Assembly (NCBI GenBank): GCA_965233585.1
Contig: CBDDTI010000746.1
Span: forward strand, 320,001 to 384,000
DNA: 64,000 nucleotides
Reading direction: 5' to 3'
DNA from: a bacterium
GTDB lineage: Bacteria; SAR324; NAC60-12
The translations under genes were made by a program, and so were the position numbers. Position 1 is the first letter of the stretch. Every line of letters begins with the position of its first letter. The notes beneath the pieces are model-generated. The model saw nothing but the letters and a program-made list of their open reading frames with translations, did not search any database and was not told where the DNA came from. Shown in pieces: positions 1 to 61,158 of this stretch.

Positions 1-1
1 G

Positions 2-1078
2 TTGCTGAAAGAGGATTTAAAGACATTTCAACAAAGGTTGCTGGAGTGGTTTGCACAAGAACAGAGACCTTTGCCTTGGAGAAGAAAATATCTGCCTTAT
101 GAAGTTTGGATTTCTGAGGTCATGCTTCAACAAACTCAAGTGGCGGTGGTCATTCCCTATTTTAACCGATGGATGCAAACGTTCCCGACTATTCAACCTC
201 TGGCAAAGGCATCAGAACAAGAGGTTTTAAAACTTTGGGAGGGTCTTGGATACTATCGCAGGGCAAGGTTTATTCATCAATCTGCCAAGTTGATTGACGA
301 GCAATTTGCAGGAGTGTTCCCAGAAAGGTTTGAAGACATTCTTTCGTTGCCCGGTGTTGGACGCTACAACGCAGGTGCGATTGCAAGCATTGCCTTTGGT
401 CAAGATGCTCCGATTGTTGACGGAAACGTGGCAAGGGTTGCCGCTAGATTGATGTTGTGGAAAGAACCAGTCAATTCTCCAACGCTGAACAAAAAACTTT
501 GGAGTCTTGCAAAAGATTGGATTCCCAGCGGGCAAGCAAGGTTTTTTAACCAAGCCATCATGGAACTTGGGGCAACCATCTGCCTACCTAAAAAGCCATT
601 GTGTTTAACATGCCCCGTGAGGCAGTTTTGCTTGGCATATCATCAGGGCATGACGCATCTGCTGCCAACCCCAAAGACCCCTAAAAAAAGCAAAGAACAA
701 CAACAAATCATTGGCATCATTCAGTCTGCTCATCAAATCTATCTTTGTTATGCCAAGTGGGGTCAGGCGTTAGGCGGACTTTGGCAGCTGCCAACATGGG
801 CTTTGGATTCAAGTCAAAGTGCTGAAGAACAATTTGTGAACATCATCAAAAAAGAATGGGGTCAAATGCCCAAAAATTTGAAGTCTTTGGGACAAGCCAC
901 GCATTGCTACACTTCCAATCGTATTCAACTCTCTATTTTTGCATGTCATCTGGCACAAACGACCATTCCCCAAGAACATTCTCAAAAATATCATCAAACT
1001 CAATGGGTGGCTTGGCAGGACTTCAAGGGTCTGACTCTGCCCAGCGTTCACAATGATTGCATTCTTAAAAGTCTTTGA
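2..1078 (+). CDS. mutY: A/G-specific adenine DNA glycosylase (start at window edge, may extend upstream)
   Basis: WISEVMLQQTQV, LPGVGRY HhH motif, VDGNVARV, 4Fe-4S motif CLPKKPLCLTCPVRQFC, C-terminal NUDIX-like part. Confidence 0.95.
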   Translation: MLKEDLKTFQQRLLEWFAQEQRPLPWRRKYLPYEVWISEVMLQQTQVAVVIPYFNRWMQTFPTIQPLAKASEQEVLKLWEGLGYYRRARFIHQSAKLIDEQFAGVFPERFEDILSLPGVGRYNAGAIASIAFGQDAPIVDGNVARVAARLMLWKEPVNSPTLNKKLWSLAKDWIPSGQARFFNQAIMELGATICLPKKPLCLTCPVRQFCLAYHQGMTHLLPTPKTPKKSKEQQQIIGIIQSAHQIYLCYAKWGQALGGLWQLPTWALDSSQSAEEQFVNIIKKEWGQMPKNLKSLGQATHCYTSNRIQLSIFACHLAQTTIPQEHSQKYHQTQWVAWQDFKGLTLPSVHNDCILKSL

Positions 1079-1122
1079 CATTCACTCATCAAGATTTATC
1101 AAAGGAATCAATGAAAAAATAT

Positions 1123-1882
1123 GGCATTGTTAAGTAATAAGTGATAGCTGATTATTCCGTTTTGCCATGAACAAAAGAACAGAATATTGTAATGCTTTAA
1201 GAGACTTGCTGTAACATTTGGTTTTCCTTCTCATTCTTGCCAAGAAATGTCTCAAGAGAGAATTATACCCTTCTATCGTGTATGTTTCTGCCTTGGAACA
1301 TGTATGAATTTCTTTGGGAATGACTTGTTTGTAAGCCTTGCAGTGATCAGTCATCACCTGAAGAGGTTTTGTTTCCTTGACCTTGTCCCATAAATGCCTA
1401 CAGGCTTTTGAGTCTCTGTTTCCAAGCACACAATTGATAAATTGCTTCCCACATCTATCAACAGCAATCCAGAGCCAGCAGTAGTTTTTTTTGACTGGAT
1501 GTAGGTGTGCATTTCATCAATTTCCATAATTTCAATGTCTGTGTCCTTTCTTAATGCCTTGAGCTGTTCGCCAAAACTACAGACCCAATTATAAACTGAA
1601 ACATGAGAACAATTCAGCAAACGACCGATTGACCTGAAACCAAGACCCTCCAAATACAACTCTAATGCTCTTCTTTTGATCTGTGGTGAGATTTGACCAC
1701 GATAGGACTTGGTATATTGATAGTTGCAGGCATTGCAACGCCTCCTCGGTTTACCATATAAAAAACCATTCTTAACCATCTTCTCACTTTCACATCTAGG
1801 ACACGACTTCATTGCTACACCATGACTATCAATTCAATTAAATGAACTTAATATCGCATATCACTTATAGTTTAACAATACC
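1123..1882 (-). mobile_element. Complete IS1-family element (760 bp)
   Basis: 24-bp imperfect terminal IRs GGCATTGTTAAGTAATAAGTGATA / GGTATTGTTAAACTATAAGTGATA; 8-bp target duplication AAAAATAT at 1115-1122 and 1883-1890. Confidence 0.95.
1130..1812 (-). CDS. insAB: IS1-family transposase InsAB, produced by programmed -1 frameshift
   Basis: InsA Zn-ribbon CPRC..CNAC plus HTH and EIDEMHTY; A8C slippery run at 1485-1492; the -1 frame continues NYCWLWIAVDR into InsB (TDH, IEGYNSLLRHFLAR). Confidence 0.92.
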
Positions 1883-1901
1883 AAAAATATTATTTTAAAA
1901 G

Positions 1902-1931
1902 TTGCATTTGTTTTTCAAGGTCTGCTAGAAT
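1902..1931 (+). promoter_or_regulatory. Putative sigma70 promoter of lipoprotein copy 1
   Basis: TTGCAT-18nt-TAGAAT with extended TG; same motif is conserved upstream of copies 2 and 3. Confidence 0.6.
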
Positions 1932-1992
1932 CCTTAACTCTCTTTTATTTCTTTTTTTTCATTCTGATTTAACCATGATTTAGGAGTTTTTT

Positions 1993-3227
1993 ATGTTAGA
2001 ACAAATCAAATCCATTCAAACCCTTTTTATCAGGGGGGGGCTTTTTATGACAAGATAATCGTTTTCTTGACACTTCTGGTCTTAGCAGGTTGCACACCTC
2101 CTGCTGAAGAAAATAAGGAGGGAGAGACGAAGAAGGGTGAAGCTACGTGCGAGGTCAACTCAAACAGTTCTGTCTCAACAGGTCAAGAATTGGTTGCCAA
2201 TTTCACTTGCACTACCACATCAATTTATCAAGGCAAAAAATTAAACATCACTTACGATGAAAGTTTGACTTCCTTGAAGCTGGTCGTCTCAGGTGAAGAA
2301 ACAACGGGGCAAAGTGGAAAACTCACCTACACCTTACCTAAACAAGAAGAATTTCAAGCCAAACTGAAGTTAACAGGAGTCACAACAGGCAAGGGACAAC
2401 TCAAGTTTAAGATTTTGAGCAAAAAATCAAACTGGGATTTTACAGTGGTACAAGGGGGACCAAAAGCATTGACGTTGGGTGCAGCGGTTGCGTCAACTGC
2501 TTTTACCAAGATGCAAGACACATCAGGCAAAGCTTATGGACGTTCGGTGATGAGGCTAGACACTTCTCAAACCCTCCTTTCCAATGACGAGACAGTTTGC
2601 AAAGATGCCCCTTTGAATGCACTGCTTGTCTCATCAGATGACTTTGTCACTTGTGAGAAAGTGTTTGTTCAAAAAGGTGATAACACCAATTATGTCATCA
2701 TTCCCAAACAAACTTGGGGCTTAAACGAAACTTACAAAGTTGCAGTGAGAACAGCAAGTGGTGCTTCTGCCTTCAATCGTTCTGGCAATGCCGTTTCCTT
2801 CACTACCAACAATGCCAACCACAACACGGTAGCTCACATTACCAGATTTGATGTTGGGTCAAGACCTAAAGTGCTAAACAATCACTTCCACTTAGAAAAA
2901 GATGGAGAACTCTGGTACTTCATCAACAAAGGCACTACGATGCCGAACTATGATGCGAGTGAATGTCAGGCAATCAACTACAAGGCAACAGATGACAAAC
3001 AATTTAAAAATCTTGCTGACAACAATCAGGATGACAGAGTCTTTGCCAGAACTATTTTAAACGGCAATACTAGTGCGTTTATCGCTAATATTTCTGGACC
3101 CAATGTCGTAGGATATTTACTCAGAGCATCAAGTGATGGTAGAGCAGGATTGAATTTTACAGCGGGAAGAAGGTACGGCCAACCTTTCTATTATCTTTGT
3201 TCTGTGAAGATTCCAGAACGTGCTTAA
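1993..3227 (+). CDS. Surface lipoprotein copy 1 with C-terminal C-type-lectin-like domain; signal peptide out of frame at a G8 tract (phase OFF or homopolymer error)
   Basis: AGGAG RBS and ATG at 1993; G8 at 2033-2040; one extra G gives MLEQIKSIQTLFIRGGAFYDKIIVFLTLLVLAGC fused to ORF 2067-3227 (lipobox LAGC). Confidence 0.75.
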
Positions 3228-3254
3228 AGGTTTTCTTTTTTCCTCCCCCCTTCT

Positions 3255-3480
3255 TCATTGCGGGCTTGTTTTTTTGTCATTCCTGCGAAAGCAGGAATCT
3301 ATCCTCTAACTGCTGATGGATTCCGTGTCAAGCACGGAATGACGTCAGGACTTTGCTCACCTTGACCCGCAATCTCTTCTTTTCTGAATCGCTCCGTTTT
3401 TTGAAATTCCGTGTCAAGCACTCAAATGACGTGAGGATTTTGCTCACCTTGAAAACTGTCATTGCTGACCTTGACCCTCA
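3255..3480. repeat. Array of GTCATT...AATC palindromic elements (REP/dRS3-like)
   Basis: GTCATTCCTGCGAAAGCAGGAATCT, GATTCCGTGTCAAGCACGGAATGAC and variants. Confidence 0.9.
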
Positions 3481-3610
3481 GGTTTTAAATTTCTCATTTT
3501 TCAAAAGCTGCCCCGCCTGTTTCTTTTTGTGATTGCCCAAGTCATGCTTATTTCTTTTTTTGAGAATCGTGTTAAAATGGCGTCTTTAGACTTGACAAAC
3601 TGACAGCCTT

Positions 3611-3898
3611 ATGATTGCCATAGACACCCTTGCATATACCAAAGCCTTGATTGCAGGAGGCTTCACAGCAGAACAAGCAGAAGTCCAAGCCAACACTTTG
3701 AATCAAACACTCAATGAGTCTTTGAAAGAAGAAATTGCAACCAAAGCAGACATAGCAAAAGTGGAATCAAGAATAGACTCGGTAGAGTCCAAAATAGACT
3801 TGGTAGAATCTAAGATAGACTCAACTCGCTGGGTGTTAGGCATGATTTTAGCTGTGAATGTCGTCATGTTAGGTGTGATTTTAAGCAAATTTTATTAA
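3611..3898 (+). CDS. DUF1640/CCDC90-like coiled-coil membrane-anchored protein
   Basis: IDTLAYTKALIAGGFTAEQAE head, IATKADI neck, VESKID heptad repeats, RW followed by a C-terminal TM helix. Confidence 0.85.
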   Translation: MIAIDTLAYTKALIAGGFTAEQAEVQANTLNQTLNESLKEEIATKADIAKVESRIDSVESKIDLVESKIDSTRWVLGMILAVNVVMLGVILSKFY

Positions 3899-3917
3899 GA
3901 AAAGTCTTTTTCCTTTC

Positions 3918-3990
3918 GTCATTGCAGACTTGCCCTTTCATCACCTGCAGGGCTTGTCTTTCCGTCATTGCTGACCTTGACCCGCAATCT
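3918..3990. repeat. Degenerate GTCATT palindromic elements
   Basis: GTCATTGCAGACTTG and GTCATTGCTGACCTTGACCCGCAATCT. Confidence 0.7.
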
Positions 3991-4072
3991 GACTCTTGTT
4001 TAGAGATTGCTTTTAGAAAGATTATCGTGTCATAATCTTCTCTTTTCGTTCAGGGTTTTCAGATTTCGGGCA

Positions 4073-4453
4073 ATGCAAGCACCACACGGATTTTACAAAA
4101 AGCTAGTTTCCAACGGCTTTACAAGAGAACAAGCAGAAGGACTCACAGAAGCGCATACCGAATTTTTTGAAGAAGTCTTGGAACGAGAGACCAAACTCAT
4201 CAAAGTAGATTTTAAAAGTGAGCTTGCCACCAAGGAAGATGTCCAGAATGTCAAAGATGAGCTGAAACATGTCAGAGATGAACTGAAAGAAGACATTCAA
4301 AATGTCAGAGATGAGCTGAAAGAAGACATCTATTTTTTAAAAGGGGACCAGAAACTCCTTAAATAGATGGTTGCTTTTGGCATTTCTTTAAATCTAATCA
4401 CACTTGGGGTGTTATTAGCCTTTTTGTTCTCTTTTCTTCCTCCTGCCAAATAA
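4073..4453 (+). pseudogene. DUF1640-like protein with TAG at the Trp codon before the TM anchor
   Basis: GFTREQAE and LATKEDV motifs, 33-bp internal repeat; TAG at 4364-4366 is followed in frame by MVAFGISLNLITLGVLLAFLFSFLPPAK-stop. Confidence 0.75.
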
Positions 4454-4485
4454 AACCCTGTCTTTTTTAGTCACGCTTGTTTTTG

Positions 4486-4560
4486 AGATTACGTGTCAAG
4501 CACTCAAGTGACTGATGACGTTTGCAGGCTTGTTTTTCTTCATTGCTGACCTTGGCCTTC
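4486..4560. repeat. Palindromic repeat elements
   Basis: AGATTACGTGTCAAGCACTCAAGTGAC and TCATTGCTGACCTTG variants of the same family. Confidence 0.7.
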
Positions 4561-4660
4561 AGGTTTTAAATTTCTCATTTTTCTTTTAGGGATTAGTATG
4601 TTGGCGGTGTTCTTGTTCTTGAGCTAGGCGTCAATACCTGTGGACTGCCGTCATTGTCTC

Positions 4661-4959
4661 TCAAATCGCTTTGAGTTCAATGAATGTCAGAGGAAGGGAT
4701 TGGTTTTTCTTGAATTTGATCCAATATTTTTGGTAGGTCGTCTGGTAAATCTGCAAGTCTGTATCTAATGCTTGTAAATGTTTGCTTTGTTTTAAAGACT
4801 GAAACTTGAGATGCAAATAACAAAAGACATCACATAACAAATCCTTTTCTTCATCAGCAAAGAATGAAAAAAATCTAATGCTCCTGTGTGTGGGTAAAAT
4901 TTACAAACTTTTGCCTCATTTTTACAAAGATAATGGTCTTGCGCTGTCTTATATTCCAA
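4661..4959 (-). pseudogene. Putative ~100-aa toxin partner of the Panacea antitoxin (RelE-like size), frameshifted
   Basis: TTG start overlaps the antitoxin stop; MEYKTAQDHYLCKNEAKVCKFYPHTGALDFF continues after a 1-nt shift near the T7 run (4867-4873) as ADEEKDLLCDVFCYLHLKFQSLKQSKHLQALDTDLQIYQTTYQKYWIKFKKNQSLPLTFIELKAI-stop. Confidence 0.45.
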
Positions 4960-5491
4960 AATAAGATTCTATCTTTTTCATGCGTTCAGAGTCGGGTTTG
5001 TAGTTTGGCAAAACAACAGACACAGGCTTTTCTTTGAGTTCAATATAAACCTCAACAAACTCATCTTTCATTGCAAACTCACTTTGAAAAAAGTTTAGCA
5101 AAGACTCATGGGTTATTGGGACGTTTTGACCCTCTTGGTAAGAATTTAGCCAAGGCGATTCTTCGTGAGTCATTTGAAATAACTTGATTGCGTCAATCTG
5201 CATGTAAGTCTCTTTGATGGCGTCAAGGATCGGGCAAGTTTTTTGTGATTCATAATCAATCAAGATGGCAGATTGTCCATATTTCTTAAAATGATGATAG
5301 ACATCTGGCACGACAGGTCCCAATTCCCACGCTTCTAAACCCTCTAAAAAGAGCGGTTTTTTCTCTATCGCCAATGAAAATCCTTGGGCATAATAAAGGA
5401 ACTTTTGTAACTTCAAATTGGAGATGACCTGACCCAAATCAGGTTGACTCCTTGCTATGATTTCTTTGGCAATCTCTATAGCACTTAGCAT
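4949..5491 (-). CDS. Panacea-domain antitoxin (DUF4065/GepA/SocA family)
   Basis: ISNLKLQKFLYYAQG, EAWELGPVVPDVY, THEESPW motifs. Confidence 0.9.
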   Translation of the reverse strand: MLSAIEIAKEIIARSQPDLGQVISNLKLQKFLYYAQGFSLAIEKKPLFLEGLEAWELGPVVPDVYHHFKKYGQSAILIDYESQKTCPILDAIKETYMQIDAIKLFQMTHEESPWLNSYQEGQNVPITHESLLNFFQSEFAMKDEFVEVYIELKEKPVSVVLPNYKPDSERMKKIESYFGI

Positions 5492-5607
5492 CGCAGACTC
5501 CTTAAATAAATTTTAAAATGACGATTAAAAGAATAGCATGACTCTTAAACCCAATGCCATACAAGCCACTCTTAAATCTCTCACAAACCAAAAATTATAA
5601 TTTCAAG

Positions 5608-5637
5608 TTGCATTTGTTTTTCAAGGTTTGCTAAAAT
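5608..5637 (+). promoter_or_regulatory. Putative sigma70 promoter of lipoprotein copy 2
   Basis: TTGCAT-18nt-TAAAAT with extended TG, conserved across the three paralogs. Confidence 0.6.
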
Positions 5638-5690
5638 TGTCATCTTGCTTTTGTTCATTTTCATTTAACCACTACCATAAGGAGATTTTT

Positions 5691-6922
5691 ATGTTAGAAC
5701 AAATCAAATCCATTCAATCCCTTCTGTCAGGGGGGGGGCTTTTTATGACAAGATAATCGTTTTCTTGACGCTTCTGGTCTTGACAGCTTGAACACCACCT
5801 AATAAAGAAAGTGAGGACGAAGACACTCAGAATCAAGCTACTTGCGAGGTTAACTCAAACAGTTCTTTGACAACAGGTCAAGAATTGGTCACCAACCTTA
5901 CATGTACCGTATCAGAGACCCATCAAGGCGAAAAATTAAACATCACTTACGACCAAAGTTTGACGTCTTTGAAGCTGATTGTTGGAGAAAAAGAAACAGT
6001 CGCACAAAGCGGAAAACTCACCTACACCTTGCCTAAACAAGAAAAATTTCAAGCCAAGTTGAAGTTGACAGGGGGCACAGCAGGCAAAGGGCAACTCAAC
6101 TTCAAGATATTGAGTCAAGAATCGGACTGGTCATTCACCGTGGTACAAGGTAGACCAAAGTCATGGACTCTGGGTGCTGCAGTTACAGCATCGGCTTTTA
6201 CTAAGATGCAGGATACATCAGGCAAAGCATACGGACGTTCGGTGATGAGGCTAGACACTTCCCAAGCCCTCCTTTCTAATGACGAGGAACATTGCGAAGA
6301 TGCTCCTTTGAACGCCTTGCTTGTCTCATCGGACAACTTTGTAACTTGTGAGAAAGTGCATGTGCAGAAAGGCGACAACACCAATCATGTCATCATTCCT
6401 AAACAAACTTGGGACTTGAACAAAACCTACAAAGTGTCGGTCAGAACGGCTGGCGGTGCTTCTGCTTTCAATCGCTCTGGCAATCCCGTTTCCTTCACCA
6501 CCAACAATGCCAATCACAACACTGCCGCACACGTCACCAGATTTGATGTTGGGTCAAGACCTAAAGTGCTAAACAATCACTTCCACTTAGAAAAAGATGG
6601 AGAACTCTGGTATTACATCAACAAAGGCAAGATAATACCGAGCTATGATAGCAGTGAGTGTCAAGCAATCAACTACAAGGCAATAAATAACAAACAATTT
6701 AAAAATCTTAATAGCAACAATCAGGCTGATAGAGAGTTTGCCAGAACTCTTTTAGATGCCAACAGCTACTATCTTTCTGGTGGCAACACTGACACTAATG
6801 TCCGTCAACTCGACGTAGGAGACGACGGTCGTGGTCGTGTACCGTATGCTGTTGCACCGGGATATGTAGCAAGATATTCTGCTTATTATCTTTGTTTTGT
6901 GAAGATTCCAGAACGTACTTAA
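5691..6922 (+). pseudogene. Surface lipoprotein copy 2; G9 tract out of frame and lipobox Cys codon mutated to TGA
   Basis: ATG at 5691, G9 at 5730-5738; the restored frame reads ...LLVLTA-TGA-TPP where the paralogs have LAG-C; body ORF 5867-6922 is intact. Confidence 0.8.
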
Positions 6923-6935
6923 ACGTTTTCTTTTC

Positions 6936-8041
6936 GTCATTGCGGGCTTGTGTTTAGGTCATTCCTGCGAAAGCAGGAATCCATGCTTGGTTTGGTGATA
7001 GATTCCGTGTCAAGCACTCAAGTGACTGATGACGTTTGCAGACTTGTTTTTTGTCATTGCGGGCTTGACCCGCAATCTCTCTCTTTTTCTCATTCATTCT
7101 TTCTCGTCATTCGGAGTGAAAGCAGGAATCCATGCCCTGATTGACGATAGATTCCGTGTCAAGCACGGAATGACGGGAGGATTTTGCCACCTTGAAAACT
7201 GTCATTGCGGGCTTGACCCGCAATCTCTCTACAACCGTCATTGCAAGGCTTGCCTTTCCGTCATTGCGTGCTTGACCCGCAATCTCATCTTGTTTTTTTG
7301 AGATTCCGCATCAAGCACGGAATGACGTGAGGAGTTTGCCACCTTGAGAACTGTCATTGCGTGCTTGACCCGCAATCTCTCTCTTTTTCATTCTGTTTTC
7401 ACTCTTTTTTGAGATTCCGTATCAAGCACGGAATGACGTGAGGAGTTTACCACCTTGAGAACTGTCATTGCTCACCTTGACCCGCAATCTCATCTTGTTT
7501 TTTTGAGATTCCGCATCAAGCACGGAATGACAAAAGTTATCATTCTTGCAAAAGCAGAAATCCATGCTTGGTTTGGTGAGAGATTCCGTGTCAAGCACGG
7601 AATGACAGAGGAGTTTGCTCACTTTGAAAACTGTCATTGCTCACCTTGACCCGCAAGCTCTCTCTTTTTCATTCTGTTTTCACTCTTTTTTGAGATTCTG
7701 TGTCAAGCACAGAATGACAGAGGAGTTTGCTCACTTTGAGAACTGTCATTGCTCATCTTGACCTGCAATCTCAAGAAAGTTCTTAATCGCTTCCGTTGTT
7801 TTTTGAGATTCTGTGTCAAGCACAGAATGACAAAAGTTGTCATTCTTGCAAAAGCAGGAATCCATGCTTGGTTTGGTGAGAGATTCTGAATCAAGTTCAA
7901 AATGACTAAGAGGGTCACAGAATGACGGGAGGATTTTGCTCACTTTGAAAACTGTCATTGCTCACCTTGACCCGCAATCTCTCTTTTGTTTTTTGAGATT
8001 CTGTGTCAAGCACTCAAGTGACTGATGACGTTTACAGACTT
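6936..8041. repeat. ~1.1-kb mosaic array of inverted palindromic elements (BIME/NIME-like)
   Basis: Many GTCATTGCGGGCTTGACCCGCAATCT-type, AGATTCCGTGTCAAGCACGGAATGAC-type and GTCATTC.TGC.AAAGCAGGAATCC-type units with repeated linkers. Confidence 0.95.
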
Positions 8042-8091
8042 GCTTTTTTGCTCAAACCACTAAAAATAATCAAAATTCATCATTTTAAAAG

Positions 8092-8121
8092 TTGCATTTG
8101 TTTTTGAAAATTTGCTAAAAT
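8092..8121 (+). promoter_or_regulatory. Putative sigma70 promoter of lipoprotein copy 3
   Basis: TTGCAT-18nt-TAAAAT with extended TG. Confidence 0.6.
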
Positions 8122-8175
8122 CGCCATCTTGCTTTTGTTCTTTTTCTTTTCAACCATTTATCAAAGGAGTTTCTT

Positions 8176-9472
8176 ATGTTAGAACAAATCAAATCCATTC
8201 AAAACCTCTTGTCAGGGGGGGTCTTTTTATGACAAGATAATCATTTTCCTGACAATGCTTGTTTTAGCAGGTTGTGTGCCACCTGCTGAAGAAAATGAGG
8301 AGGACGCCGCACAGAACCAAGCCACCTGCGAGGTGGACTCTAGCAGTTCTTTGACAACAGGTCAAGAACTGGTTGCCAACCTCACCTGCACCGTGTCAAC
8401 TATTTATCAAGGCAAGCGGTTGAGCATCGCTTACGATGAAAGCCTGACGTCTTTGAAGCTGGTCGTGTTAGGGGACAAAGCGGTTGGGCAGATTGAAGGA
8501 GAAACAGTTGGGCAAAGTGGAAAGTTGTCTTACATTTTGCCGAGGAAGGCTGAATTTCAAGCCAAGCTGAAGTTGACAGGCGTCACAGCAGGCAAAGGGC
8601 AACTGCAATTCAAAATCTTGAGAAAAAAATCAAACTGGGCTTTTACAGTGGTCAATGGGGGTTCTAACCCGTCGCCAAATTCCGGTGGAGGGTCAACGCC
8701 ATCTACTCCAAAGGCATTAACGTTGGGTGTTGCTGTTACAGCAACCGCTTTTACTAAGATGCAAGACACATCAGACAAAGCTTATGGACGTTCAGTGATG
8801 AGACTGGATACTTCTCAAACTCTAGTCTCCAATGACAAAACGGTTTGTGAAGATACCCCTTTGAATGCCTTGCTTGTCTCATCAGACGATTTCCTAAACT
8901 GTGAAAAAGTTTATGTGCAGAAAGGAAACAAAACGAATCACGTCATCATTCCCAAGCAAACTTGGGGCTTGAACAAAACCTACAAAGTGGCAATTAAAAC
9001 GGCTGGCGGGGCTTCTGCTTTTAATCGCTCTGGCAATCCTGTCTCTTTTGCCACTAACAATGCCAATCATAACACAGTGGCTCACATCACAGGCTTTGAT
9101 GTAGATTCGTTCTCTCAAGTCCTAACTGATGACTTCCATTTGGAAAAAGATGGAGAACTCTGGTATTACATTGACAAAGGCGACAGGATACCAAGATATG
9201 ACAGTAGTGAATGTCAAGCCGTCGACTATCAAAATACAAAGAGCGTCAAATTTAAAAATCTTAACAATGATAACTCTGGTAATAGAGCGTTAGCCCAAGC
9301 TGTTTTCGGAGATACTCAACGTCATTACGTTGGTAGAGCTTTCACTGCCACAGTTACTGTTATATGGACACTCAATGGTATCAGACCTTCCGGCTACAGT
9401 ATAAATAATAAGATCGCCGGTATAAACAATATTTATTATTTTTGTTCTGTGACAATTCCAGAACGTACTTGA
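8176..9472 (+). CDS. Surface lipoprotein copy 3; signal peptide out of frame at a G7 tract
   Basis: AGGAG and ATG at 8176; G7 at 8215-8221; G6 or G9 fuses it to ORF 8255-9472 (lipobox LAGC); extra G/S/P linker. Confidence 0.75.
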
Positions 9473-9505
9473 ACGTTTTCGTTTCTTCTTCCTTTCTTCC
9501 TTTTT

Positions 9506-9670
9506 GTCACTGCGGGCTTGTGTTTAAGTCATTGCTCGCCTTGAGTGAGCAATCTCTCTTTTGTTTTTGAGATTCCGTGTCAGGCACTCAAGTGACGGGA
9601 GGATTTTGCTCACTTTGAAAACTGTCATTGTGGGCTTGACCCGCAATGACAGTTTTCAAGGTGAGCGATG
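9506..9670. repeat. Palindromic repeat array
   Basis: GTCATTGCTCGCCTTGAGTGAGCAATCT, GTCATTGTGGGCTTGACCCGCAATGAC within a longer inverted repeat. Confidence 0.85.
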
Positions 9671-9801
9671 ACGAAAAAGGTGAGAAAAAAGAAACCTCAG
9701 AAATTGAGGAGAAAAACAGAATGAGGAAAAGAAAATTGAGAAACTTGCAAAGTCATTCCCCTCCAGTAGAAGGGAATGAAAAGACCCTGCTTTGTGAAGG
9801 G

Positions 9802-11559
9802 TTAGGGGAGTCTGATATTTTCCACCATCTCTTGCACTTTTTCAGGTGGGGCAGGGGTGAAGAGAGACACGACCATTGAGACAACCAAGTTAGTGACCAT
9901 GGCAATCGTTCCAAATCCTTCTGGAGAGATACCAAACCACCAATCACTTGGGGAGGTGGGTCCGAATAGATTAAACTTGAACTTGAGCATGTAGAAGATC
10001 ATGAGTAAAAGCCCAACGACCATGCCTGTAATTGCCCCCTCTTTATTCATTCGTTTGTAAAAGATGCCAAGAATGATGGCAGGGAAGAAAGAGGCTGCAG
10101 CTAGTCCAAATGCTAATGCGACCACAGCGGCAACAAATCCCGGTGGATTGATTCCAAAGTATCCTGCCACAATGACAGCAACCCCTGCGGCAATTCTAGC
10201 GACCAATAACTCCTGCTTGTCTGTCAAATCTGGTTTGATTTGAGATTTGATTAAATCGTGGGAGACAGAAGAAGAGATCACAAGCAACAATCCTGCAGCA
10301 GTGGAAAGTGCGGCAGCTAGTCCACCTGCGGCAACCAAAGCAATGACCCAATTTGGAAGTTGAGCAATTTCAGGATTAGCAAGCACCATAATATCACGAT
10401 CAATGTAGAGTTCGTTGGAACCGCTTGTCGCTTGATTGGTGATTAAAATTTGTCCATGTTTGCCTCGTTCTGGGTCTCCTGATTCATTGAGTTTTTGTTG
10501 TGGCTTCCCAATAAATGCGTTGCCTGCAGTGTACTTAACTTGACCATCATCGTCTTTGTCCACCCATGCAATGAGGTTGGTTGCCTCCCACTTTTTAAAC
10601 CATTCAGGCAAGATGCGATATTCTTTTTGAGATACAGTTTCAATCAAATTGACTCTGGCAAAGGAGGCAATAGCAGGGGCTGTTGTGTAAAGAATGGCGA
10701 TAAAAACCAATGCCCAGCCTGCTGACTTTCTGGCATCACGGACTCTGGGAACTGTGAAGAAACGAATGATGACATGAGGCAATCCTGCAGTACCAACCAT
10801 CAAAGCAAATGTGATGGCAAAGACATCAATGACGCTTTTAGAACCTGATGTGTATTCTGCAAATCCCAATTCTCGGTGCAATCCGTCCAGCTTGTCCAGC
10901 AAATAAGAACCATCTTGCAAAGTTGAACCAAAGCCAGAGTGAGGCAAAATGTGTCCCGTTAATTGAAACGAGATGAAAAAGGCAGGTAGCATGTATGCAA
11001 AAATCAGGACACAATATTGAGCAACTTGCGTGTAAGTAATCCCTTTCATACCACCCAGCACGGCATAGAAGAAAACGATAATCATACCAATCACGACGCC
11101 TGTATTGATAGGGACTTCAAGAAATCTGGAAAAGACGACTCCAACACCCCTCATCTGACCTGCAATGTAGGTGAACGACACGACCAATGCACAAACCACT
11201 CCTACTGTTCTAGCAATTTCAGAATAATACCGATCCCCAATGAAGTCAGGCACTGTAAACTTCCCAAACTTCCGTAGATAAGGGGCAAGTAGCAATGCTA
11301 ACAAGACGTAGCCACCTGTCCAGCCCATTAGAAACACGCTGCCATCATATCCTGCAAAGGAGATGATTCCTGCCATAGAAATAAACGATGCCGCAGACAT
11401 CCAATCTGCGGCAGTTGCCATGCCATTTGCCACTGCTGGCACAGATTTACTTGCCACATAAAAATCACCAGTAGATTCTGCACGTGACCTCAAAGCAATC
11501 CAGATATAAAGCATAAAAGTAATGCTTACGATGAGATAAGTCCAAATTTGTACTGACAT
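9802..11559 (-). CDS. Sodium:solute symporter, ActP-like cation/acetate permease
   Basis: NGMATAADWMSAASF, GTAGLPHVIIRFFTV, many TM helices. Confidence 0.92.
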   Translation of the reverse strand: MSVQIWTYLIVSITFMLYIWIALRSRAESTGDFYVASKSVPAVANGMATAADWMSAASFISMAGIISFAGYDGSVFLMGWTGGYVLLALLLAPYLRKFGKFTVPDFIGDRYYSEIARTVGVVCALVVSFTYIAGQMRGVGVVFSRFLEVPINTGVVIGMIIVFFYAVLGGMKGITYTQVAQYCVLIFAYMLPAFFISFQLTGHILPHSGFGSTLQDGSYLLDKLDGLHRELGFAEYTSGSKSVIDVFAITFALMVGTAGLPHVIIRFFTVPRVRDARKSAGWALVFIAILYTTAPAIASFARVNLIETVSQKEYRILPEWFKKWEATNLIAWVDKDDDGQVKYTAGNAFIGKPQQKLNESGDPERGKHGQILITNQATSGSNELYIDRDIMVLANPEIAQLPNWVIALVAAGGLAAALSTAAGLLLVISSSVSHDLIKSQIKPDLTDKQELLVARIAAGVAVIVAGYFGINPPGFVAAVVALAFGLAAASFFPAIILGIFYKRMNKEGAITGMVVGLLLMIFYMLKFKFNLFGPTSPSDWWFGISPEGFGTIAMVTNLVVSMVVSLFTPAPPEKVQEMVENIRLP

Positions 11560-11588
11560 AAAAGCCTCCTATAAATTGAGTTGAAACG

Positions 11589-11843
11589 TTAGTCTTCTGA
11601 AACTTGATGCTTATCTTCCAATTTTTCCATCAAATTGGAATAGACAAAAATCAAGATGACAAACACATAGATTGACCCTTGTTGTGCAATCCAAAATCCC
11701 AGCTTGAACCCTGCAAGCCGTATAGAGTTGAGTGCATCGGCAAAGAAGATGCCCAGTACACAAGAAACAACAAACCAAATGCCTAGCAACCATGCAAGGT
11801 ATTTGAGATTAGAGTTCCAATACTCCAAATGTTCTTTTTTCAT
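11589..11843 (-). CDS. DUF4212 small membrane partner of the symporter
   Basis: GFKLGFWIAQQGSIYVFV motif, directly upstream of the SSS gene. Confidence 0.9.
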   Translation of the reverse strand: MKKEHLEYWNSNLKYLAWLLGIWFVVSCVLGIFFADALNSIRLAGFKLGFWIAQQGSIYVFVILIFVYSNLMEKLEDKHQVSED

Positions 11844-12102
11844 AATTTTCTCCTTATATGATGATTATGATTAATGAAAAAACAGAAATTAGCATGAGTT
11901 TTTATCAGTTGCAAGTGTTATTTTAAATTTTTTATTGTGATTTTTAGGCGTCATTTTGAATGATTCACGCGGCAGAGTCGGTAGATGGTCATTTTTGAAA
12001 AGAATCAAAAAGGATTTTTTGAAGAATTTGAAGGAAGATTTGGAATGGTGTTGACAATCGGGGGTTGTCTTTATATTCTGTTGTGTTTTTTTTCAAGGTT
12101 GC

Positions 12103-23162: not shown

Positions 23163-23384
23163 ATGTCTGCTTCTTCATCTTCTTACTCAAATCATTCAAA
23201 GGAATCTGAACAGTTGACCGTTCCTTGTCCTCAATGTCAAAAACTCATCATCTTGCAACAATCACAACACCGCCCTTTTTGCTCAAAACGTTGTCAAATG
23301 ATTGACAGAGGTGCTTGGGTCTCTGGTGAGTATTTCATTGTAGGAGACCAAGAATCGTCTCATCAAAACTTGAGTGATGAATGA
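23163..23384 (+). CDS. yacG: DNA gyrase inhibitor YacG
   Basis: CPQC...RPFCSKRCQMID.GAW. Confidence 0.9.
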   Translation: MSASSSSYSNHSKESEQLTVPCPQCQKLIILQQSQHRPFCSKRCQMIDRGAWVSGEYFIVGDQESSHQNLSDE

Positions 23385-25192
23385 CACGAATGATGAATGA
23401 CATTCAAATTCTGCCTGAAGAAATCATTAATCAAATCTCTGCTGGTGAGGTGGTAGACCGTCCCGCTTCTGTGGTGAAAGAGTTTGCAGAAAACTCTCTT
23501 GATGCAGGAGCGACGCAGATTTACGTCACCATTCAAAACGGAGGCAAAGAGTTAATCTCGGTGGCAGACAATGGGCATGGCATGACTGAAGACAATGCCA
23601 AGCTGGCAATAGAAAGGCATGCCACTAGCAAAATTTCTGTGACTTCTGACCTTGACCATATTCAGACGATGGGTTTTCGTGGGGAGGCATTGGCGGCGAT
23701 TGCCTCTGTTTCTCGGCTGGAATTGCTGACCTGTGCCAAAGAGGGTCAAGCAGGTACAAGGCTTGAGGTAGAGGGAGGGAGGTTGAAGCAGTGCCACCAA
23801 GTGGGGTTTCCTCAAGGCACAAAGGTTGTGGTCAAGCAACTTTTTTTCAATACGCCTGCACGGTTGAAGTTTATGAAGACGGTGGCGACAGAGTTCCGTG
23901 CCATTCAAGAGCAGTTTTTATCGCTGGCACTTCTTTATCATCATGTCCACTTCCGATTGACTCACAACAACAAACTTTCATTTGACCTGCCTGCCAAAGA
24001 CAACCTGTCAGCAAGGGCTTATCAGCTGTTCCAAGAAGACTTTGGAGCATCGGTATTTCCACTTTGGCATGAAGAATCTTATTTGAAATTGGAGGGGTTG
24101 TTTTCCTTACCTTCCCGCACCAAACGTTCTAGGTCTAAGCAATATCTTTTTGTCAATGGACGCTACATTCGTTCACCTGAGATGGTCAGTAGTGTGTATC
24201 AGTCTTATGGTGCATTGATTGAAAGGGGAAGCCACCCGCTTTTTATTTTAAAAATCTCTCTTGACCCTTCTGAAATTGATGTCAACGTCCACCCTGCCAA
24301 AACTCAAATCCGCTTTAGGAACCTCAAAGTCGTGACAACGATTATTGAAGAACAGCTGACCCAACAAATTAGAAAGCAATCTGACCAAAGATATTTTTCA
24401 GACCAAACCAAGCCCCGTGTTTCTGGGTCTCAATATCCGTCTGTTCAAAGTGCAGTTCAAAATCCCGATGTGGTTTCTGACTCAGCCTTGTCTTCTGCCA
24501 AGCCAAGTCATTTGACTATCTTGCAACACCCCTCGTCAAACGAAGCAGGACAGCTCAAGTTTCAACTACCAAAGGTAGTCTTGCCTAAACCGAAGGTCAA
24601 AAAAGAGCCAAAAGAGCAGTGGACTGCCATCGTTCAACTGCAAGACCGCTACATTTTGGCTCAAACTCCCAAAGGGTTGTTGTGCATAGACCAAGAAGTG
24701 GCAAGCCAGACAATTTTAGAACAGCGATTGCACCTTGAAATCAAGAATGACACCTTGCTCATTCATACCTTTCATTCTCCGATTCTGCTGGAACTTGCAC
24801 CGCATCTTGATTTGGCACTGGCTAAAAATTTACCCCTTTTCCAAAAACAAGGCTTCACGTTAGAAGAGTTTGGCAGAAACACCTATCGCTTGTTAACAGC
24901 ACCAGATTTTTTGAAGTATCTGGACTGTGCCACGATGATTCAAAACGTCCTGACTCAAGTCATAGAACAGCATCAACTCAATGACCCTGAACAAATGGCG
25001 GGGCATCTCACAAGTCAAGCTGCGAAGTTAGGGGCTTATTCTGTGGGCAGGGTGTTGTCTCTTTCCCAAATGAATCAGTTGCTTCAAGCTATGCAACAAC
25101 TTCAAATGTCAGCAACAGATTCCCATCGTCAACTTCTTTTTATAGAATGGAGATATGAAGATTTGGACAAGCAATTTGCTAAAAAATTATAG
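23381..25192 (+). CDS. mutL: DNA mismatch repair protein MutL
   Basis: ISAGEVVDRPASVVKE, RHATSK, GFRGEAL, DVNVHPAK. Confidence 0.96.
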   Translation: MTRMMNDIQILPEEIINQISAGEVVDRPASVVKEFAENSLDAGATQIYVTIQNGGKELISVADNGHGMTEDNAKLAIERHATSKISVTSDLDHIQTMGFRGEALAAIASVSRLELLTCAKEGQAGTRLEVEGGRLKQCHQVGFPQGTKVVVKQLFFNTPARLKFMKTVATEFRAIQEQFLSLALLYHHVHFRLTHNNKLSFDLPAKDNLSARAYQLFQEDFGASVFPLWHEESYLKLEGLFSLPSRTKRSRSKQYLFVNGRYIRSPEMVSSVYQSYGALIERGSHPLFILKISLDPSEIDVNVHPAKTQIRFRNLKVVTTIIEEQLTQQIRKQSDQRYFSDQTKPRVSGSQYPSVQSAVQNPDVVSDSALSSAKPSHLTILQHPSSNEAGQLKFQLPKVVLPKPKVKKEPKEQWTAIVQLQDRYILAQTPKGLLCIDQEVASQTILEQRLHLEIKNDTLLIHTFHSPILLELAPHLDLALAKNLPLFQKQGFTLEEFGRNTYRLLTAPDFLKYLDCATMIQNVLTQVIEQHQLNDPEQMAGHLTSQAAKLGAYSVGRVLSLSQMNQLLQAMQQLQMSATDSHRQLLFIEWRYEDLDKQFAKKL

Positions 25193-56096: not shown

Positions 56097-57306
56097 GTCA
56101 TTGCTTACCTTGACCCGCAATCTCCCTTTTTTCCAAACGACCCCGTCATTGCGGGCTTGACCCGCAATCTGTGCTTTGTTTGGTGATAGATTCCACATCA
56201 AGTGGGGAATGACAAAGAGAGTTTGCAGACTTGTTTTGTCGTCATTGCTGACCTTGCCCCGCAATCTCATTCTTCTTAAAACACAGGACAAACTTGGGTT
56301 TGTCCCTACGTTGTCATTGCGGGCTTGACCCGCAATCTCACCTTTTTCATTGTGTTGACATTCTTTTTTGAGATTCCGCATCAAGTGCGGAATGACTACG
56401 ACCGTCATTCCTGCGAAAGCAGGAATCCATGCGATGTTGACGATGGATTCCGTGTCAGGTACGGAATGACAGAAAAAAGAGGGGAATTGAAACACCCCGT
56501 TCCTGCGTCATTGCTCACCTTGAACTTAGTCATTGCTCATCTTGTCCGCAATCTCATTTTTTCCCGATTTTACCAGAGCGACTCTTTTTTTGAGATTCCG
56601 TGTTCCCCCGTCATTGCGTGCTTGTGTTTCCGTCATTGCTCACCTTGACCCGCAATCTCTCTTGTTTTCTATCCGCGTCATTGCTTAATTTGAAAACCGT
56701 CATTGCGGGCTTGACCCGCAATCTCACCTTTTTCATTGTGTTGACATTCTTTTTTGAGATTCCGCATCAAGTGCGGAATGACTACGACCGTCATTCCTGC
56801 GAAAGCAGGAATCCATGCGATGTTGACGATGGATTCCGTGTCAGGTACGGAATGACAGAAAAAAGAGGGGAATTGAAACACCCCGTTCCTGCGTCATTGC
56901 TCATTTTGAAAACCGTCATTGCTCACCTTGACCCGCAATCTCTCTTGTTTTCTTCGTTCACTTTTTTTAGAAACGACTCGCTTTTTGAAATTCCGCATCA
57001 AGCACTCAAGTGACAGAAAAAAAGAGAGGGAAATTGAAACACCCCGTTCCCCCGTCATTGCTCACCTTGACCCGCAATCTCTCTTGTTTTCTATCCGCGT
57101 CATTGCGGGACTTGACCCGCAATCTCCCTCGTCTTCTTCCAAACAACTCCTTTTTTTGAGATTCCGCATCAAGTGCGGAATGACTGAGAGGTTTTGTAGG
57201 CGTGTCTTTTTGTCATTGCGGGACCTGACCCGCAATCTCTCTTGTTTTCTATCCGCGTCATTGCTTAATTTGAAAACCGTCATTGCGGGACCTGACCCGC
57301 AATCTC
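56097..57306. repeat. ~1.2-kb mosaic array of GTCATT palindromic elements
   Basis: Same unit family as 6936-8041; includes a 205-bp exact duplication (56313-56517 / 56699-56903). Confidence 0.95.
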
Positions 57307-60814: not shown

Positions 60815-61158
60815 GTCATTGCTGACCTTGAGTGAGCAATCTCACTTGTCTTTTTCCCAACAACTCTTGTTTTTGAGATTCTGAATCAAGTTCAGAATGA
60901 CGAAAGGAGTTTGATCTTTTCCTCATTCCCCTGTCATGGCTCACTTTGACCCGCAATCTCATTCTTCTTTGTTGAGATTCCGTATCAAGTGCGGAATGAC
61001 AAAGAGAGGTACGGAATGACGAGAGAACGTTTGAGATTGCGGGTCAAGCCCGCAATGACGGAAAGACTGCTGGAGATTCCGCATCAAGTGCGGAATGACT
61101 GGGGGAGACACGGAATGACGAGAGGACGTTTGAGATTCTGCATCAAGTGCGGAATGAC
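60815..61158. repeat. Palindromic repeat array
   Basis: AGATTCCGCATCAAGTGCGGAATGAC, AGATTGCGGGTCAAGCCCGCAATGAC and half-elements. Confidence 0.9.

Follow-up and report, generated by a model that had tools for sequence, protein, structure and literature searches.

We have identified, in an uncultured bacterium of the SAR324 lineage, three genes of a 20-member, lineage-specific surface lipoprotein family that, on balance, are probably switched gene by gene through slipped-strand mispairing at a poly-G tract. The three genes lie near the start of a 64,000-nt stretch of contig CBDDTI010000746.1, hereafter the window. The tract and the frameshift that goes with it were overlooked in an earlier note on this DNA; they are the main feature of the locus and the most likely mechanism of its variation. 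Slipped-strand phase variation is a known mechanism, and the protein family and the lineage are new.

In the proposed mechanism, each gene would be read from its own promoter, Shine-Dalgarno sequence and start codon. A run of 7–9 G, about 40 nt past the start and ahead of both the lipobox (L-A/T-G-C) and the hydrophobic core of the signal, would gain or lose one G at replication, bringing the start codon into or out of register with the downstream coding sequence. Because such a change shifts the frame, each copy would be reversibly ON or OFF. We infer the slippage step from the layout and from comparison of the paralogs. As assembled, all three window copies are OFF, and copy 2 is also broken by a stop at the lipobox cysteine. 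The mature protein is predicted to begin with an Ig-like domain, continue with another beta-sandwich and end in a C-type-lectin-like domain with one disulfide. Gene conversion would keep the bodies alike while the tips remain distinct. With bodies homogenised, tips distinct and copies switched, a population could thus vary the set of binding specificities or antigens that it presents. The proteins may serve as adhesins, or in evasion of phages, grazers or hosts.

Organization of the three genes

The ATG starts of the three paralogs were verified at 1993, 5691 and 8176, and the main open reading frames (ORFs) span 2067–3227 (copy 1), 5867–6922 (copy 2) and 8255–9472 (copy 3). The features are as follows (window coordinates; hairpin repeats are given without strand).

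1902–1931, + strand: copy 1 promoter-like pair TTGCAT (1902–1907) and TAGAAT (1926–1931), 18-nt spacer, putative function
1982–1995, + strand: copy 1 Shine-Dalgarno sequence AGGAG (1982–1986) and ATG (1993–1995)
2033–2040, + strand: copy 1 poly-G tract, 8 G, ATG out of frame with the lipobox
2091–3227, + strand: copy 1 mature lipoprotein coding sequence, lipobox Cys TGC (2091) to stop (3225–3227), 378 aa
3060–3188, + strand: copy 1 hypervariable tip, 43 aa
3279–3426: hairpin repeats 3' of copy 1, types C, B, B
5608–5637, + strand: copy 2 promoter-like pair TTGCAT (5608–5613) and TAAAAT (5632–5637), 18-nt spacer
5680–5693, + strand: copy 2 Shine-Dalgarno sequence (5680–5684) and ATG (5691–5693)
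5730–5738, + strand: copy 2 poly-G tract, 9 G, ATG out of frame with the lipobox at offset 98, one G short of the in-frame length of 10 G
5789–5791, + strand: copy 2 TGA replacing the lipobox Cys codon of the paralogs, a second, independent inactivating change
5792–6922, + strand: copy 2 body and tip, 376 open codons past the TGA
6961–8018: hairpin-repeat array between copies 2 and 3, 17 matches at no more than 3 mismatches
8092–8121, + strand: copy 3 promoter-like pair TTGCAT (8092–8097) and TAAAAT (8116–8121), 18-nt spacer
8165–8178, + strand: copy 3 Shine-Dalgarno sequence (8165–8169) and ATG (8176–8178)
8215–8221, + strand: copy 3 poly-G tract, 7 G then T, out of frame (offset 97)
8273–9472, + strand: copy 3 mature lipoprotein coding sequence, Cys TGT (8273) to stop, 399 aa
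9531–9647: hairpin repeats 3' of copy 3

The promoter-like pairs of copies 2 and 3 are equivalent to that of copy 1 and equally spaced; the copy 1 pair is absent from a consensus promoter scan because it falls below the 9-of-12 threshold. The Shine-Dalgarno sequence reads AGGAG in all three copies. Pairwise protein identity among the window copies is 67–73%. In copy 1 the offset from ATG to lipobox is 98 nt, so that 9 G would place the two in frame; as assembled, the ATG frame meets a stop after 21 codons. For the mature copy 1 protein the predicted domains are Ig-like, beta-sandwich and C-type-lectin-like, the last beginning at 2844. The C-terminal domain begins at 6539 in copy 2 (tip 6755–6883) and at 9092 in copy 3 (tip 9308–9433). 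The array between copies 2 and 3 includes a composite unit of about 112 nt repeated 2.2 times (7580–7832). The earlier note described a promoter, a leader and most of a body common to the three genes; the sharing holds, but leader and body are not continuous in any of the three, since the poly-G tract between start codon and lipoprotein signal breaks the frame.

The poly-G tract and the reading frame

The leader is common to 20 loci genome-wide. Pure tracts (at least 7 G) occur at 12 of these, of which four are in frame (all G9) and eight are out, exactly the one-third expected if tract lengths run freely. Among interrupted or short tracts, by comparison, 7/8 are in frame (binomial test against 1/3, p=0.0026; Fisher test against pure tracts, p=0.025). 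The residues encoded at the tract vary among the interrupted copies, which argues that the tract is conserved as DNA and not as protein. This single leader position accounts for 12 of the 32 G/C runs of at least 8 on the six largest contigs (11 in the family and one in a subfamily). In a second lipoprotein family, a (CCGCAAT)8-24 repeat occupies the equivalent place in five loci. Counted against a poly-G switch is that the genome encodes MutS and MutL.

It is rather unlikely, though far from negligible, that the frameshifts are no switch, being either homopolymer errors of the assembly (with all copies in frame and constitutive) or fixed pseudogene lesions, the tract having no regulatory part. 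All seven loci that need G10 to be ON carry 7–9 G, and no G/C run of 10–12 was found anywhere on the large contigs, from which some under-calling of long G runs may be suspected; A/T run-length counts likewise fall sharply from length 8 (597) to length 9 (43). G13 and G14 runs were nevertheless assembled. Moreover, 16/17 other coding G/C runs of at least 8 are read through by long ORFs, versus 8/12 broken in the family (p=0.0009). Read-through is likewise seen at 273 coding A/T runs of at least 8, and apparent frameshifts at A/T runs proved to be gene junctions or IS1 sites. Contigs from four runs (two samples, one study), among which paralog contigs confound the leader, gave no direct evidence of tract-length variation within a population. 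Against an assembly error, a short-read unitig present in 4/4 of these runs reproduces one OFF paralog type (C747:406675/517914) save for a single 1-nt deletion, and thus agrees on G8.

As to fixed lesions, the stop in copy 2, the loss of the ATG and truncation at C746:288736, and the interrupted, degenerate and out-of-frame tract at C745:43705 suggest that some copies may be decaying. The OFF copies nonetheless retain 316–412 open codons past the lipobox, and the body is under purifying selection (body dN/dS 0.16–0.28). A pure G tract is also kept at the equivalent site in paralogs that are merely 44% identical, while in an outside relative (P0013) the signal peptide is an ordinary one that lacks the tract.

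A switch by slipped-strand mispairing would silence the OFF alleles. It is improbable that these are instead partly rescued by transcriptional slippage or ribosomal frameshifting, with tract length tuning the level of expression. Long homopolymers are known sites of slippage in other bacteria, and the layout, a homopolymer in the early coding region with intact frames downstream in OFF copies, would suit it. Known transcriptional slippage is, however, mostly at A/T runs, and we found no frameshift-stimulating structure, the leader hairpin being no more stable than shuffled sequences (z -0.44 to +0.92). Very improbable is an intrinsic terminator or attenuator formed by the poly-G, an upstream pyrimidine run and a downstream T run, with tract length setting read-through: a terminator scan listed hairpins in 3/3 leaders, but at -8.6 to -11.3 kcal/mol they are no better than shuffled sequences (65–171 of 200 shuffles fold equally well), the pyrimidine run is not conserved among paralogs, and the T run belongs to the coding sequence (Ala-Phe-Tyr when read in the ON frame).

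Conserved bodies, divergent tips and hairpin repeats

Ten full-length paralogs of the genome were aligned and compared in 20-column windows. Mean pairwise identity was 0.59–0.94 over columns 1–320 and 0.26, 0.21 and 0.15 over columns 341–400, past which it recovers in the YY(L/F)C.V.IPER end; overall, the body is about 80% identical versus 15–26% in a stretch of about 43 residues. The divergence over some 45 residues ahead of this conserved end, reported earlier from the three window copies, is thus borne out across the ten paralogs. Between tips there are indels, and synonymous change is saturated (dS about 1.25). Over the first ~480 nt, copy 1 matches C747:432679 at 100% identity; the figure then drops to 82–88%, and to 53% in the tip. 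For the pair C747:436962 and C746:50591, body identity is 97% and tip identity 55–57%. The leader and first domain are also found fused to Kelch propellers.

The palindrome array noted after each paralog was likewise confirmed, hairpin repeats beginning 17–155 nt past the stop codons. At 16/18 family loci at least one hairpin repeat lies within 1.5 kb downstream, and these 27 kb hold 76 of the 382 matches genome-wide, about 20 times the density of the large contigs.

Predicted fold of the mature protein

The family proteins had no sequence match in Pfam, NCBIfam or the PDB. The C-terminal ~125 aa are predicted to form a C-type-lectin-like domain (model pLDDT 71.2, from a shallow alignment of 16 sequences), and the Foldseek and VIA-align matches listed for it are lectin-like almost without exception. 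A structure search with the domain model gave 30 chains at Z of at least 5 in a wide search and 299 in a second look, and all rows listed from it are lectin-like domains. The best match was the Bd2740 adhesin tip (PDB 8OKS; rmsd 3.0 A over 95/111 residues); the matches are middling, with a best Z of 7.3 and a Foldseek E of 0.01. The full model matched intimin 1F00 (E 2e-6), invasin 1CWV and InvE by Foldseek. Of two invariant cysteines, helix 1 carries one and the last strand the other, the disulfide between them being itself predicted. The hypervariable stretch corresponds to strands and loops past helix 2, the ligand-binding place in such domains, and these ~43 residues are probably the ligand-binding surface. 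The prediction therefore supports the lectin fold and cysteine pair suggested earlier, and "uncharacterised adhesin or antigenic-variation system" remains a fair label.

Diversity-generating retroelements

The lead given in the earlier note, under which a diversity-generating retroelement (DGR) would use its reverse transcriptase to rewrite the tips, as its variable regions, from a template repeat, was rejected as largely refuted and is scarcely credible. The variable stretch does, like that of Mtd and TvpA, occupy the C-terminal end of a lectin-like fold, and the genome has 113 RVT_1 matches, but just one of these is on the window's contig, 25 kb off inside a type I restriction-modification operon (the sole reverse transcriptase on the large contigs), and no DGR-type enzyme is encoded nearby. 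The tip cores match nothing else in the 12-Mb assembly (92% complete) except other paralog tips at 60–72%, the differences between tips include indels and synonymous sites and show no adenine-specific pattern, and unitigs of the four runs cross all three tips without one difference.

Comparison with known systems

The layout resembles that of pilC and opa of pathogenic Neisseria, in which a simple-sequence repeat in the 5' coding region changes in repeat number and thereby shifts the frame, turning expression of a surface adhesin on or off. In pilC the tract is within the signal-peptide region, and the opa genes form a multigene family with independent switching of each copy. Unlike these, the present lipoproteins belong to an unrelated orphan family of an uncultured environmental lineage and their switch is a candidate one; their tracts are short (7–9), and what varies is a lectin-like tip instead of a beta-barrel loop. 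A phasome survey gives a modal poly-G length of 9, lists pilC G(9-20) and opa CTTCT(7-21), both as genic, and sets a threshold of 9 G in Neisseria, above the G7–G8 tracts seen here (PMC5953494).

The order of predicted parts, Ig-like domains and then a C-terminal C-type-lectin-like domain, is similar to that of intimin and invasin tips, with 1F00, 1CWV and 5N40 among the top Foldseek matches of the full model. The family has a single cysteine pair about 78 residues apart, and intimin and invasin have a corresponding pair. In contrast to them, the family has a lipobox in place of a beta-barrel or LysM anchor and no Pfam Intimin_C or Big match, and global superposition is poor (TM 0.21–0.26). 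The relation is one of architecture, not membership.

The closest structure, at 10% sequence identity, is the tip of the Bdellovibrio bacteriovorus MAT fibre Bd2740 (8OKS), characterised as a calcium-free C-type lectin variant at the tip of an adhesive fibre (PMC10769870). It differs in being a trimeric fibre and not a lipoprotein, and in having no repeat-based switch. Mtd and TvpA share the placement of variable residues at the C-terminal end of a lectin-like fold; unlike them, the family has no template repeat, cognate reverse transcriptase or adenine-specific pattern, and has indels.

In Mycoplasma, the multigene families Vlp, Vsa and others like them encode surface lipoproteins whose genes are conserved at the 5' end and whose exposed parts diverge, with homopolymer tracts switching each copy separately. 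Their tracts mostly lie in promoters, and tandem repeats make up what varies, whereas the present family has its tract in the coding leader and varies in a predicted folded lectin-like domain.

Reading frames of the lipoprotein paralogs

The three lipoprotein paralogs of the window described in the earlier note were confirmed, although the note had missed a frameshift that affects all three. Each copy is preceded by a promoter-like pair (TTGCAT-18 nt-TA(G/A)AAT) and an AGGAG Shine-Dalgarno sequence. In 3/3 copies the start codon is out of frame with the conserved part of the protein (the body), at a poly-G tract that lies 39-40 nt 3' of the ATG and ahead of the lipobox.

Features of the paralog region (window coordinates; products of the three long open reading frames are 67-73% identical)
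1900-9670, paralog region: three genes, each with a promoter-like pair, a Shine-Dalgarno sequence and an ATG, the last at 1993, 5691 and 8176 in copies 1, 2 and 3
2033-2040, poly-G tract of copy 1, 8 G
2067-3227, long open reading frame of copy 1
5730-5738, poly-G tract of copy 2, 9 G
5867-6922, long open reading frame of copy 2
8215-8221, poly-G tract of copy 3, 7 G
8255-9472, long open reading frame of copy 3

The ATG frame of the window copies ends after 18-21 codons. Depending on tract length, the offset from the ATG to the lipobox cysteine is 97, 98 or 99 nt, and the two are in frame at 99 only; the frame is restored by one additional G in copies 1 and 2, and by two additional G or one fewer in copy 3. 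No usable upstream start is present in the frame encoding the hydrophobic signal core and lipobox (…IIVFLTLLVLAGC), in which the sole candidates are a TTG in copy 1 (giving MTLLVLAGC) and an ATG in copy 3 (giving MLVLAGC). The lipobox reads LAGC in copies 1 and 3 and LTA-stop in copy 2, where a TGA at 5789-5791 replaces the cysteine codon. By reading of the sequence, the leader of in-frame copies is M-L-E-Q-...-K-I-I-V-F-L-T-L-L-V-L-A-G-C, a lipobox-type signal peptide. An attenuator hairpin in the leader was ruled out, as folding was no better than that of shuffled sequences.

The window corresponds to C746:320001-384000 of the assembly (12.0 Mb, 747 contigs). Across the assembly, the leader was found at 18 loci, all on large contigs. 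Ten of the 18 carry a body and a hypervariable tip as in the window copies, and seven join the leader and first domain (residues 1-125, 73-84% identical) to Kelch propellers. The remaining locus, C746:288736, is truncated and has ATA in place of ATG. Two members of a distant subfamily (~44% identity) have another leader peptide, yet share the same ...TGTCA-Gn-CTTTTT core, and tract statistics were calculated over all 20 loci (18 leader loci and the two distant members).

Reading frame by tract type at the 20 loci
Pure tract of at least 7 G: 12 loci, 4 in frame (all G9), 8 out of frame
Interrupted or short tract (GGAGAAGG, GGTGCGGG, GGGCGTGGTG, GAAGAAAC, GGGGGGTGG and similar): 8 loci, 7 in frame, 1 out of frame

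Tracts of G7-G9 lie 39-40 nt 3' of the ATG and ahead of the lipobox at 12 loci, and the in-frame share of these pure tracts is exactly one third, the expectation for freely drifting lengths. For the interrupted tracts, the in-frame share departs from one third (p=0.0026, binomial) and also from the pure-tract share (p=0.025, one-sided Fisher). Encoded residues at the tract differ among interrupted copies, indicating that the tract is conserved as DNA and not as protein. The 12 nt immediately 5' of the tract vary among paralogs. In the out-of-frame (OFF) copies family-wide, the ATG frame ends after 18-22 codons, and 316-412 open codons follow from the lipobox on in every OFF copy but copy 2. 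The single full-length relative outside the assembly (P0013, 49% identical) lacks the tract, its lipoprotein signal peptide being of the ordinary kind. The threshold of nine G used for Neisseria (PMC5953494) is reached by 7 of the 12 tracts.

Several members occur in tandem. A cluster of five family genes at C747:431-443 kb comprises four with lectin-like tips and one with a Kelch head, with tracts that are G9 off, G9 on, G9 on, interrupted on and G8 off. Four Kelch-headed genes are clustered at C747:984-994 kb, two with G9 on and two with interrupted tracts, also on.

Heptanucleotide repeats in a second lipoprotein family

In a second lipoprotein family, (CCGCAAT)n arrays are found at five loci directly 3' of the ATG, ahead of a signal peptide and lipobox.

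Arrays of (CCGCAAT)n
C295:101579-101697, n = 17
C745:167237-167299, n = 9
C746:71143-71268, n = 18
C746:488284-488451, n = 24
C747:156520-156575, n = 8

The arrays are a candidate heptanucleotide phase-variation switch. The CCGCAAT unit is one arm of hairpin type A, one of the repeats that follow the poly-G family genes. MutS and MutL are each present in one copy in the assembly, the MutL match being located within the window (ORF 23381-25192).

Assembly error or real frameshift

A rival explanation of the poly-G frameshifts is that they are an artefact of assembly. In keeping with a loss of bases from homopolymers, all seven loci (7/7) that need G10 for frame carry fewer G, G/C runs of length 10-12 are absent from the large contigs, and counts of A/T runs drop sharply from 597 at length 8 to 43 at length 9. 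Runs of 13 and 14 G do occur in the assembly, however, and the frameshifts are concentrated in the family. On the six largest contigs there are 32 G/C runs of at least 8, of which 12 (11 in the family and one in the subfamily) share the leader position. Of the remaining 20, ORFs with at least 60 codons on each side read through 16, one (the C14 run at C729:57424) splits a frame and three are non-coding, such that coding G/C runs are broken in 8/12 family cases versus 1/17 elsewhere (p=0.0009). A/T runs of at least 8 number 673, with 273 read through; a frameshift signature accompanies 29, and those inspected proved to be either gene junctions or the IS1 programmed-frameshift site in one of its copies. 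The heptanucleotide arrays bear on the same question, since homopolymer error cannot account for a unit of 7 nt; repeats that shift the frame therefore do exist at this position in the organism's lipoprotein genes.

Public data consisted of Logan contigs of four runs at a depth of about 2-10. No RNA run contained the stretch. One unitig, found in the contigs of 4/4 runs, matches the paralog type C747:406675/517914 and differs from copy 1 by four substitutions and a single 1-nt deletion, i.e. G8 as assembled. Contigs with an additional G numbered 4, 5, 0 and 3 in the four runs; they coincide with a paralog-specific SNP, and paralog contigs overlap in the leader, so that they carry no locus assignment. 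Likewise, a contig of run X3 is possibly G8 against G9 in the assembly, at a depth of 3.3 that permits no locus assignment.

The run of 14 C at C729:57424-57437 splits an open frame into 203 and 180 codons and may be another contingency locus, and a run of 13 C at C295:21866-21878 is intergenic. The five largest contigs (2.9 Mb) behave differently from the other 742 (9.1 Mb): 248/249 G/C runs of at least 14 are on small contigs, as are nearly all of the 113 reverse-transcriptase matches, and large contigs carry almost all of the hairpin repeats and of the lipoprotein family. The bin may be composite, or built from different data types.

Protein architecture and the C-terminal domain

No Pfam or NCBIfam family matched the proteins of the three copies. 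Relaxing Pfam to E up to 1 gave just three sub-threshold beta-sandwich matches and none to Lectin_C, Lcl_C (DUF1566), FGE-sulfatase or Intimin_C. A profile search of PDB sequences gave no match, and matches in the protein atlas scored 0.83, under the 0.9 lead level. An AlphaFold model of mature copy 1 (13 sequences, pLDDT 68.7) contains three predicted domains.

Predicted domains of mature copy 1 (residues)
19-120, Ig-like sandwich
133-250, second beta-sandwich
266-378, alpha/beta domain

Foldseek searches with the full model ranked intimin (1F00) first (E 2e-6), invasin (1CWV) third and InvE (5N40) eighth. These proteins combine Ig-like stalks with a lectin-like cap, in the same order as the copy 1 model would have them. 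The N-terminal beta-barrel of the inverse autotransporters, and the LysM domain of intimin, are absent here, and the lipobox cysteine leads directly into the Ig-like domain.

Modelled alone (16 sequences, pLDDT 71.2), the C-terminal domain is predicted to adopt an alpha/beta fold with two helices and a beta2-beta5 sheet, as in the C-type-lectin-like superfamily. No Foldseek match of this domain in the PDB library fell below E 0.001; the list is almost wholly C-type-lectin-like, with a best E of 0.01 and probabilities of 0.94-0.97. VIA-align against 48,161 chains returned 30 at Z >=5, and all 50 matches listed were lectin-like. The best was the tip of Bdellovibrio Bd2740 (8OKS_B; Z 7.3, rmsd 3.0, 95 residues), and the Legionella Lcl C-terminal domain scored Z 4.7; Z below 8 is middling and can reflect a common arrangement. 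When the Foldseek matches were re-scored with VIA-align, 299 chains had Z >=5, and the top matches in a viral structure library were C-type lectin proteins, along with a DUF1566 protein of a phage. The C-type-lectin fold proposed in the earlier note is therefore supported at the level of prediction, because the match lists are so uniform and not because of the height of any single score. Two cysteines, Cys292 and Cys370 in the numbering of mature copy 1, are invariant in 16/16 sequences at domain positions 41 and 119, which the model places in the first helix (39-42) and the last strand (110-122), presumably the canonical position of the lectin-domain disulfide. The EPN or QPD and WND motifs, by which C-type lectins bind Ca2+ and sugar, were absent from the three window domains by direct reading.

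By sequence, the C-terminal domain is an orphan. A profile search of 1.84 billion representative proteins gave 13 matches, and across this domain only proteins of the assembly itself, P0013 and a 102-aa fragment (P0027) align. A search of 5.8 billion proteins gave two outside proteins, P0013 and P0020, and no others. The family was found in 0/40 related genomes, and neither genome_contigs nor, by protein query, JGI metagenome contigs gave a match. Eight loci carrying the 21-nt leader motif in JGI metagenome contigs were each a chance match on inspection. Four giant lipoproteins of the assembly (open frames of 1241-1751 aa) end in the family's C-terminal domain, each with its own variable stretch.

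Divergence of the tips

The variable stretch corresponds to domain residues ~73-115, comprising the strands and loops that come after helix 2 and before the last strand. Divergence is indeed concentrated just before the conserved end of the proteins, as had been noted earlier, with pairwise identity among the 10 paralogs of 15-26% in the tip versus about 80% in the body. All ten tips are distinct (the closest pair is 57% identical in nucleotides), unequal in length and gapped in alignment. The body has a dN/dS ratio of 0.16-0.28 and the tip one of about 0.9; in the tip, alignment is unreliable and dN (1.19) and dS (1.25) are near saturation; tip dS is saturated in 11/45 pairs. For the first ~480 nt of mature coding sequence there is no difference between copy 1 and C747:432679; identity then drops to 82-88%, and to 53% in the tips. 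The bodies of C747:436962 and C746:50591 are 97% identical and their tips 55-57%. From these sequence comparisons, we read the pattern as gene conversion that would homogenize the 5' part and body and leave old, distinct tips in place.

A diversity-generating retroelement (DGR), which the earlier note had suggested as a source of tip variation, was rejected. Searches of the whole assembly (92% complete) by blastn with word sizes 9 and 7 gave no template repeat for the tips, only paralog tips at 60-72%. Of 113 RVT_1 matches in the assembly, 112 are on other contigs, and the only one on the window's contig, which is also the nearest (C746:294563, 25 kb upstream), belongs to a type I restriction-modification operon, where hsdS and hsdR flank it. 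The lack of a template repeat and of a cognate nearby reverse transcriptase, together with the indels and synonymous divergence of the tips, speaks against a DGR target. Unitigs of the four runs cross all three tips (2888-3216, 6583-6927, 8610-9579) with zero differences, which is weak evidence because contigs drop rare variants and the assembly may itself derive from these runs.

The region C746:286001-300000 looks like a defence island. Inserted between the subunits of its type I operon (HsdR, HsdS) are PD-(D/E)XK nucleases, a RhuM-like gene and a reverse transcriptase of 521 aa, and the truncated family member with the ATA start lies 6 kb from this operon.

Hairpin arrays

The arrays consist of three related perfect hairpins with common GTCATT…AATGAC ends, often combined into a composite unit of ~112 nt. 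At up to 3 mismatches, they number 159, 157 and 66 genome-wide, with 147, 143 and 61 of these on the three largest contigs, and 76 of the 382 matches are within 1.5 kb 3' of the 18 family loci. Rfam searches of window 1-12000 at E up to 0.1 gave no match at all, the hairpins included. A REP/RAYT origin was rejected, as no Y1_Tnp (PF01797) transposase is present in the assembly (92% complete). Candidate roles are a terminator, an mRNA stabilizer or a recombination boundary.

Proposed mechanism and significance

Judged from sequence, this modular family of putative lipoprotein adhesins most likely undergoes phase variation through slipped-strand mispairing at its poly-G tracts. The mechanism itself has precedents, and the novelty lies in the protein family and the lineage. 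ON/OFF surface adhesin families driven by repeats are textbook features of host-adapted Neisseria, Campylobacter, Helicobacter and Mycoplasma, whereas to our knowledge such switching is hardly documented in uncultured environmental lineages. A literature search found no paper linking SAR324 with phase variation.

More tentatively, and in our estimation less likely than not, the whole might amount to pathogen-style combinatorial surface variation in an uncultured environmental bacterium. At least 12 poly-G contingency loci would switch independently, and the five heptanucleotide-repeat loci, as a second set, may switch likewise. The lipoproteins would combine a common switchable leader cassette with one of two interchangeable kinds of head, a hypervariable lectin-like tip or a Kelch propeller. 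Bodies would be homogenized by gene conversion and tips spared, and the flanking hairpin arrays may serve as boundaries at which the cassettes recombine.

Should the switch prove real, ~20 genes are invested in a bet-hedging repertoire of binding tips, which would imply strong, fluctuating selection on the surface by phages, grazers, host or prey. The family may also offer a compact, sequence-orphan, predicted lectin-like domain with a natural library of putative binding loops. The claim of phase variation is directly testable from raw reads of the source samples.

Other genes of the window

Between copies 1 and 2, and directly upstream of copy 1, the following genes were observed.

Genes adjoining the paralogs (window coordinates)
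1130-1812 (-), IS1-family element, ending directly upstream of the copy 1 promoter
3611-3898 and 4007-4366 (+), CCDC90-like coiled-coil small membrane proteins
4949-5491 (-), SocA/Panacea antitoxin-like gene

A 1036-aa protein encoded at 57622-60732 (+) has at least three Fn3 domains and two Lcl_C (DUF1566) C-type-lectin-like domains, the latter a domain type that is a frequent DGR target. No reverse transcriptase was found near this gene, and hairpin arrays of the family type border it at 56148-56833 and 60977-61036. The window also encodes an arginine decarboxylase, at most 53% identical to any sequence in genome_contigs. The IS1-family element carries an A8 programmed-frameshift site and recurs at many further sites on C745-C747, and at least 14 copies share a 110/126-codon signature.
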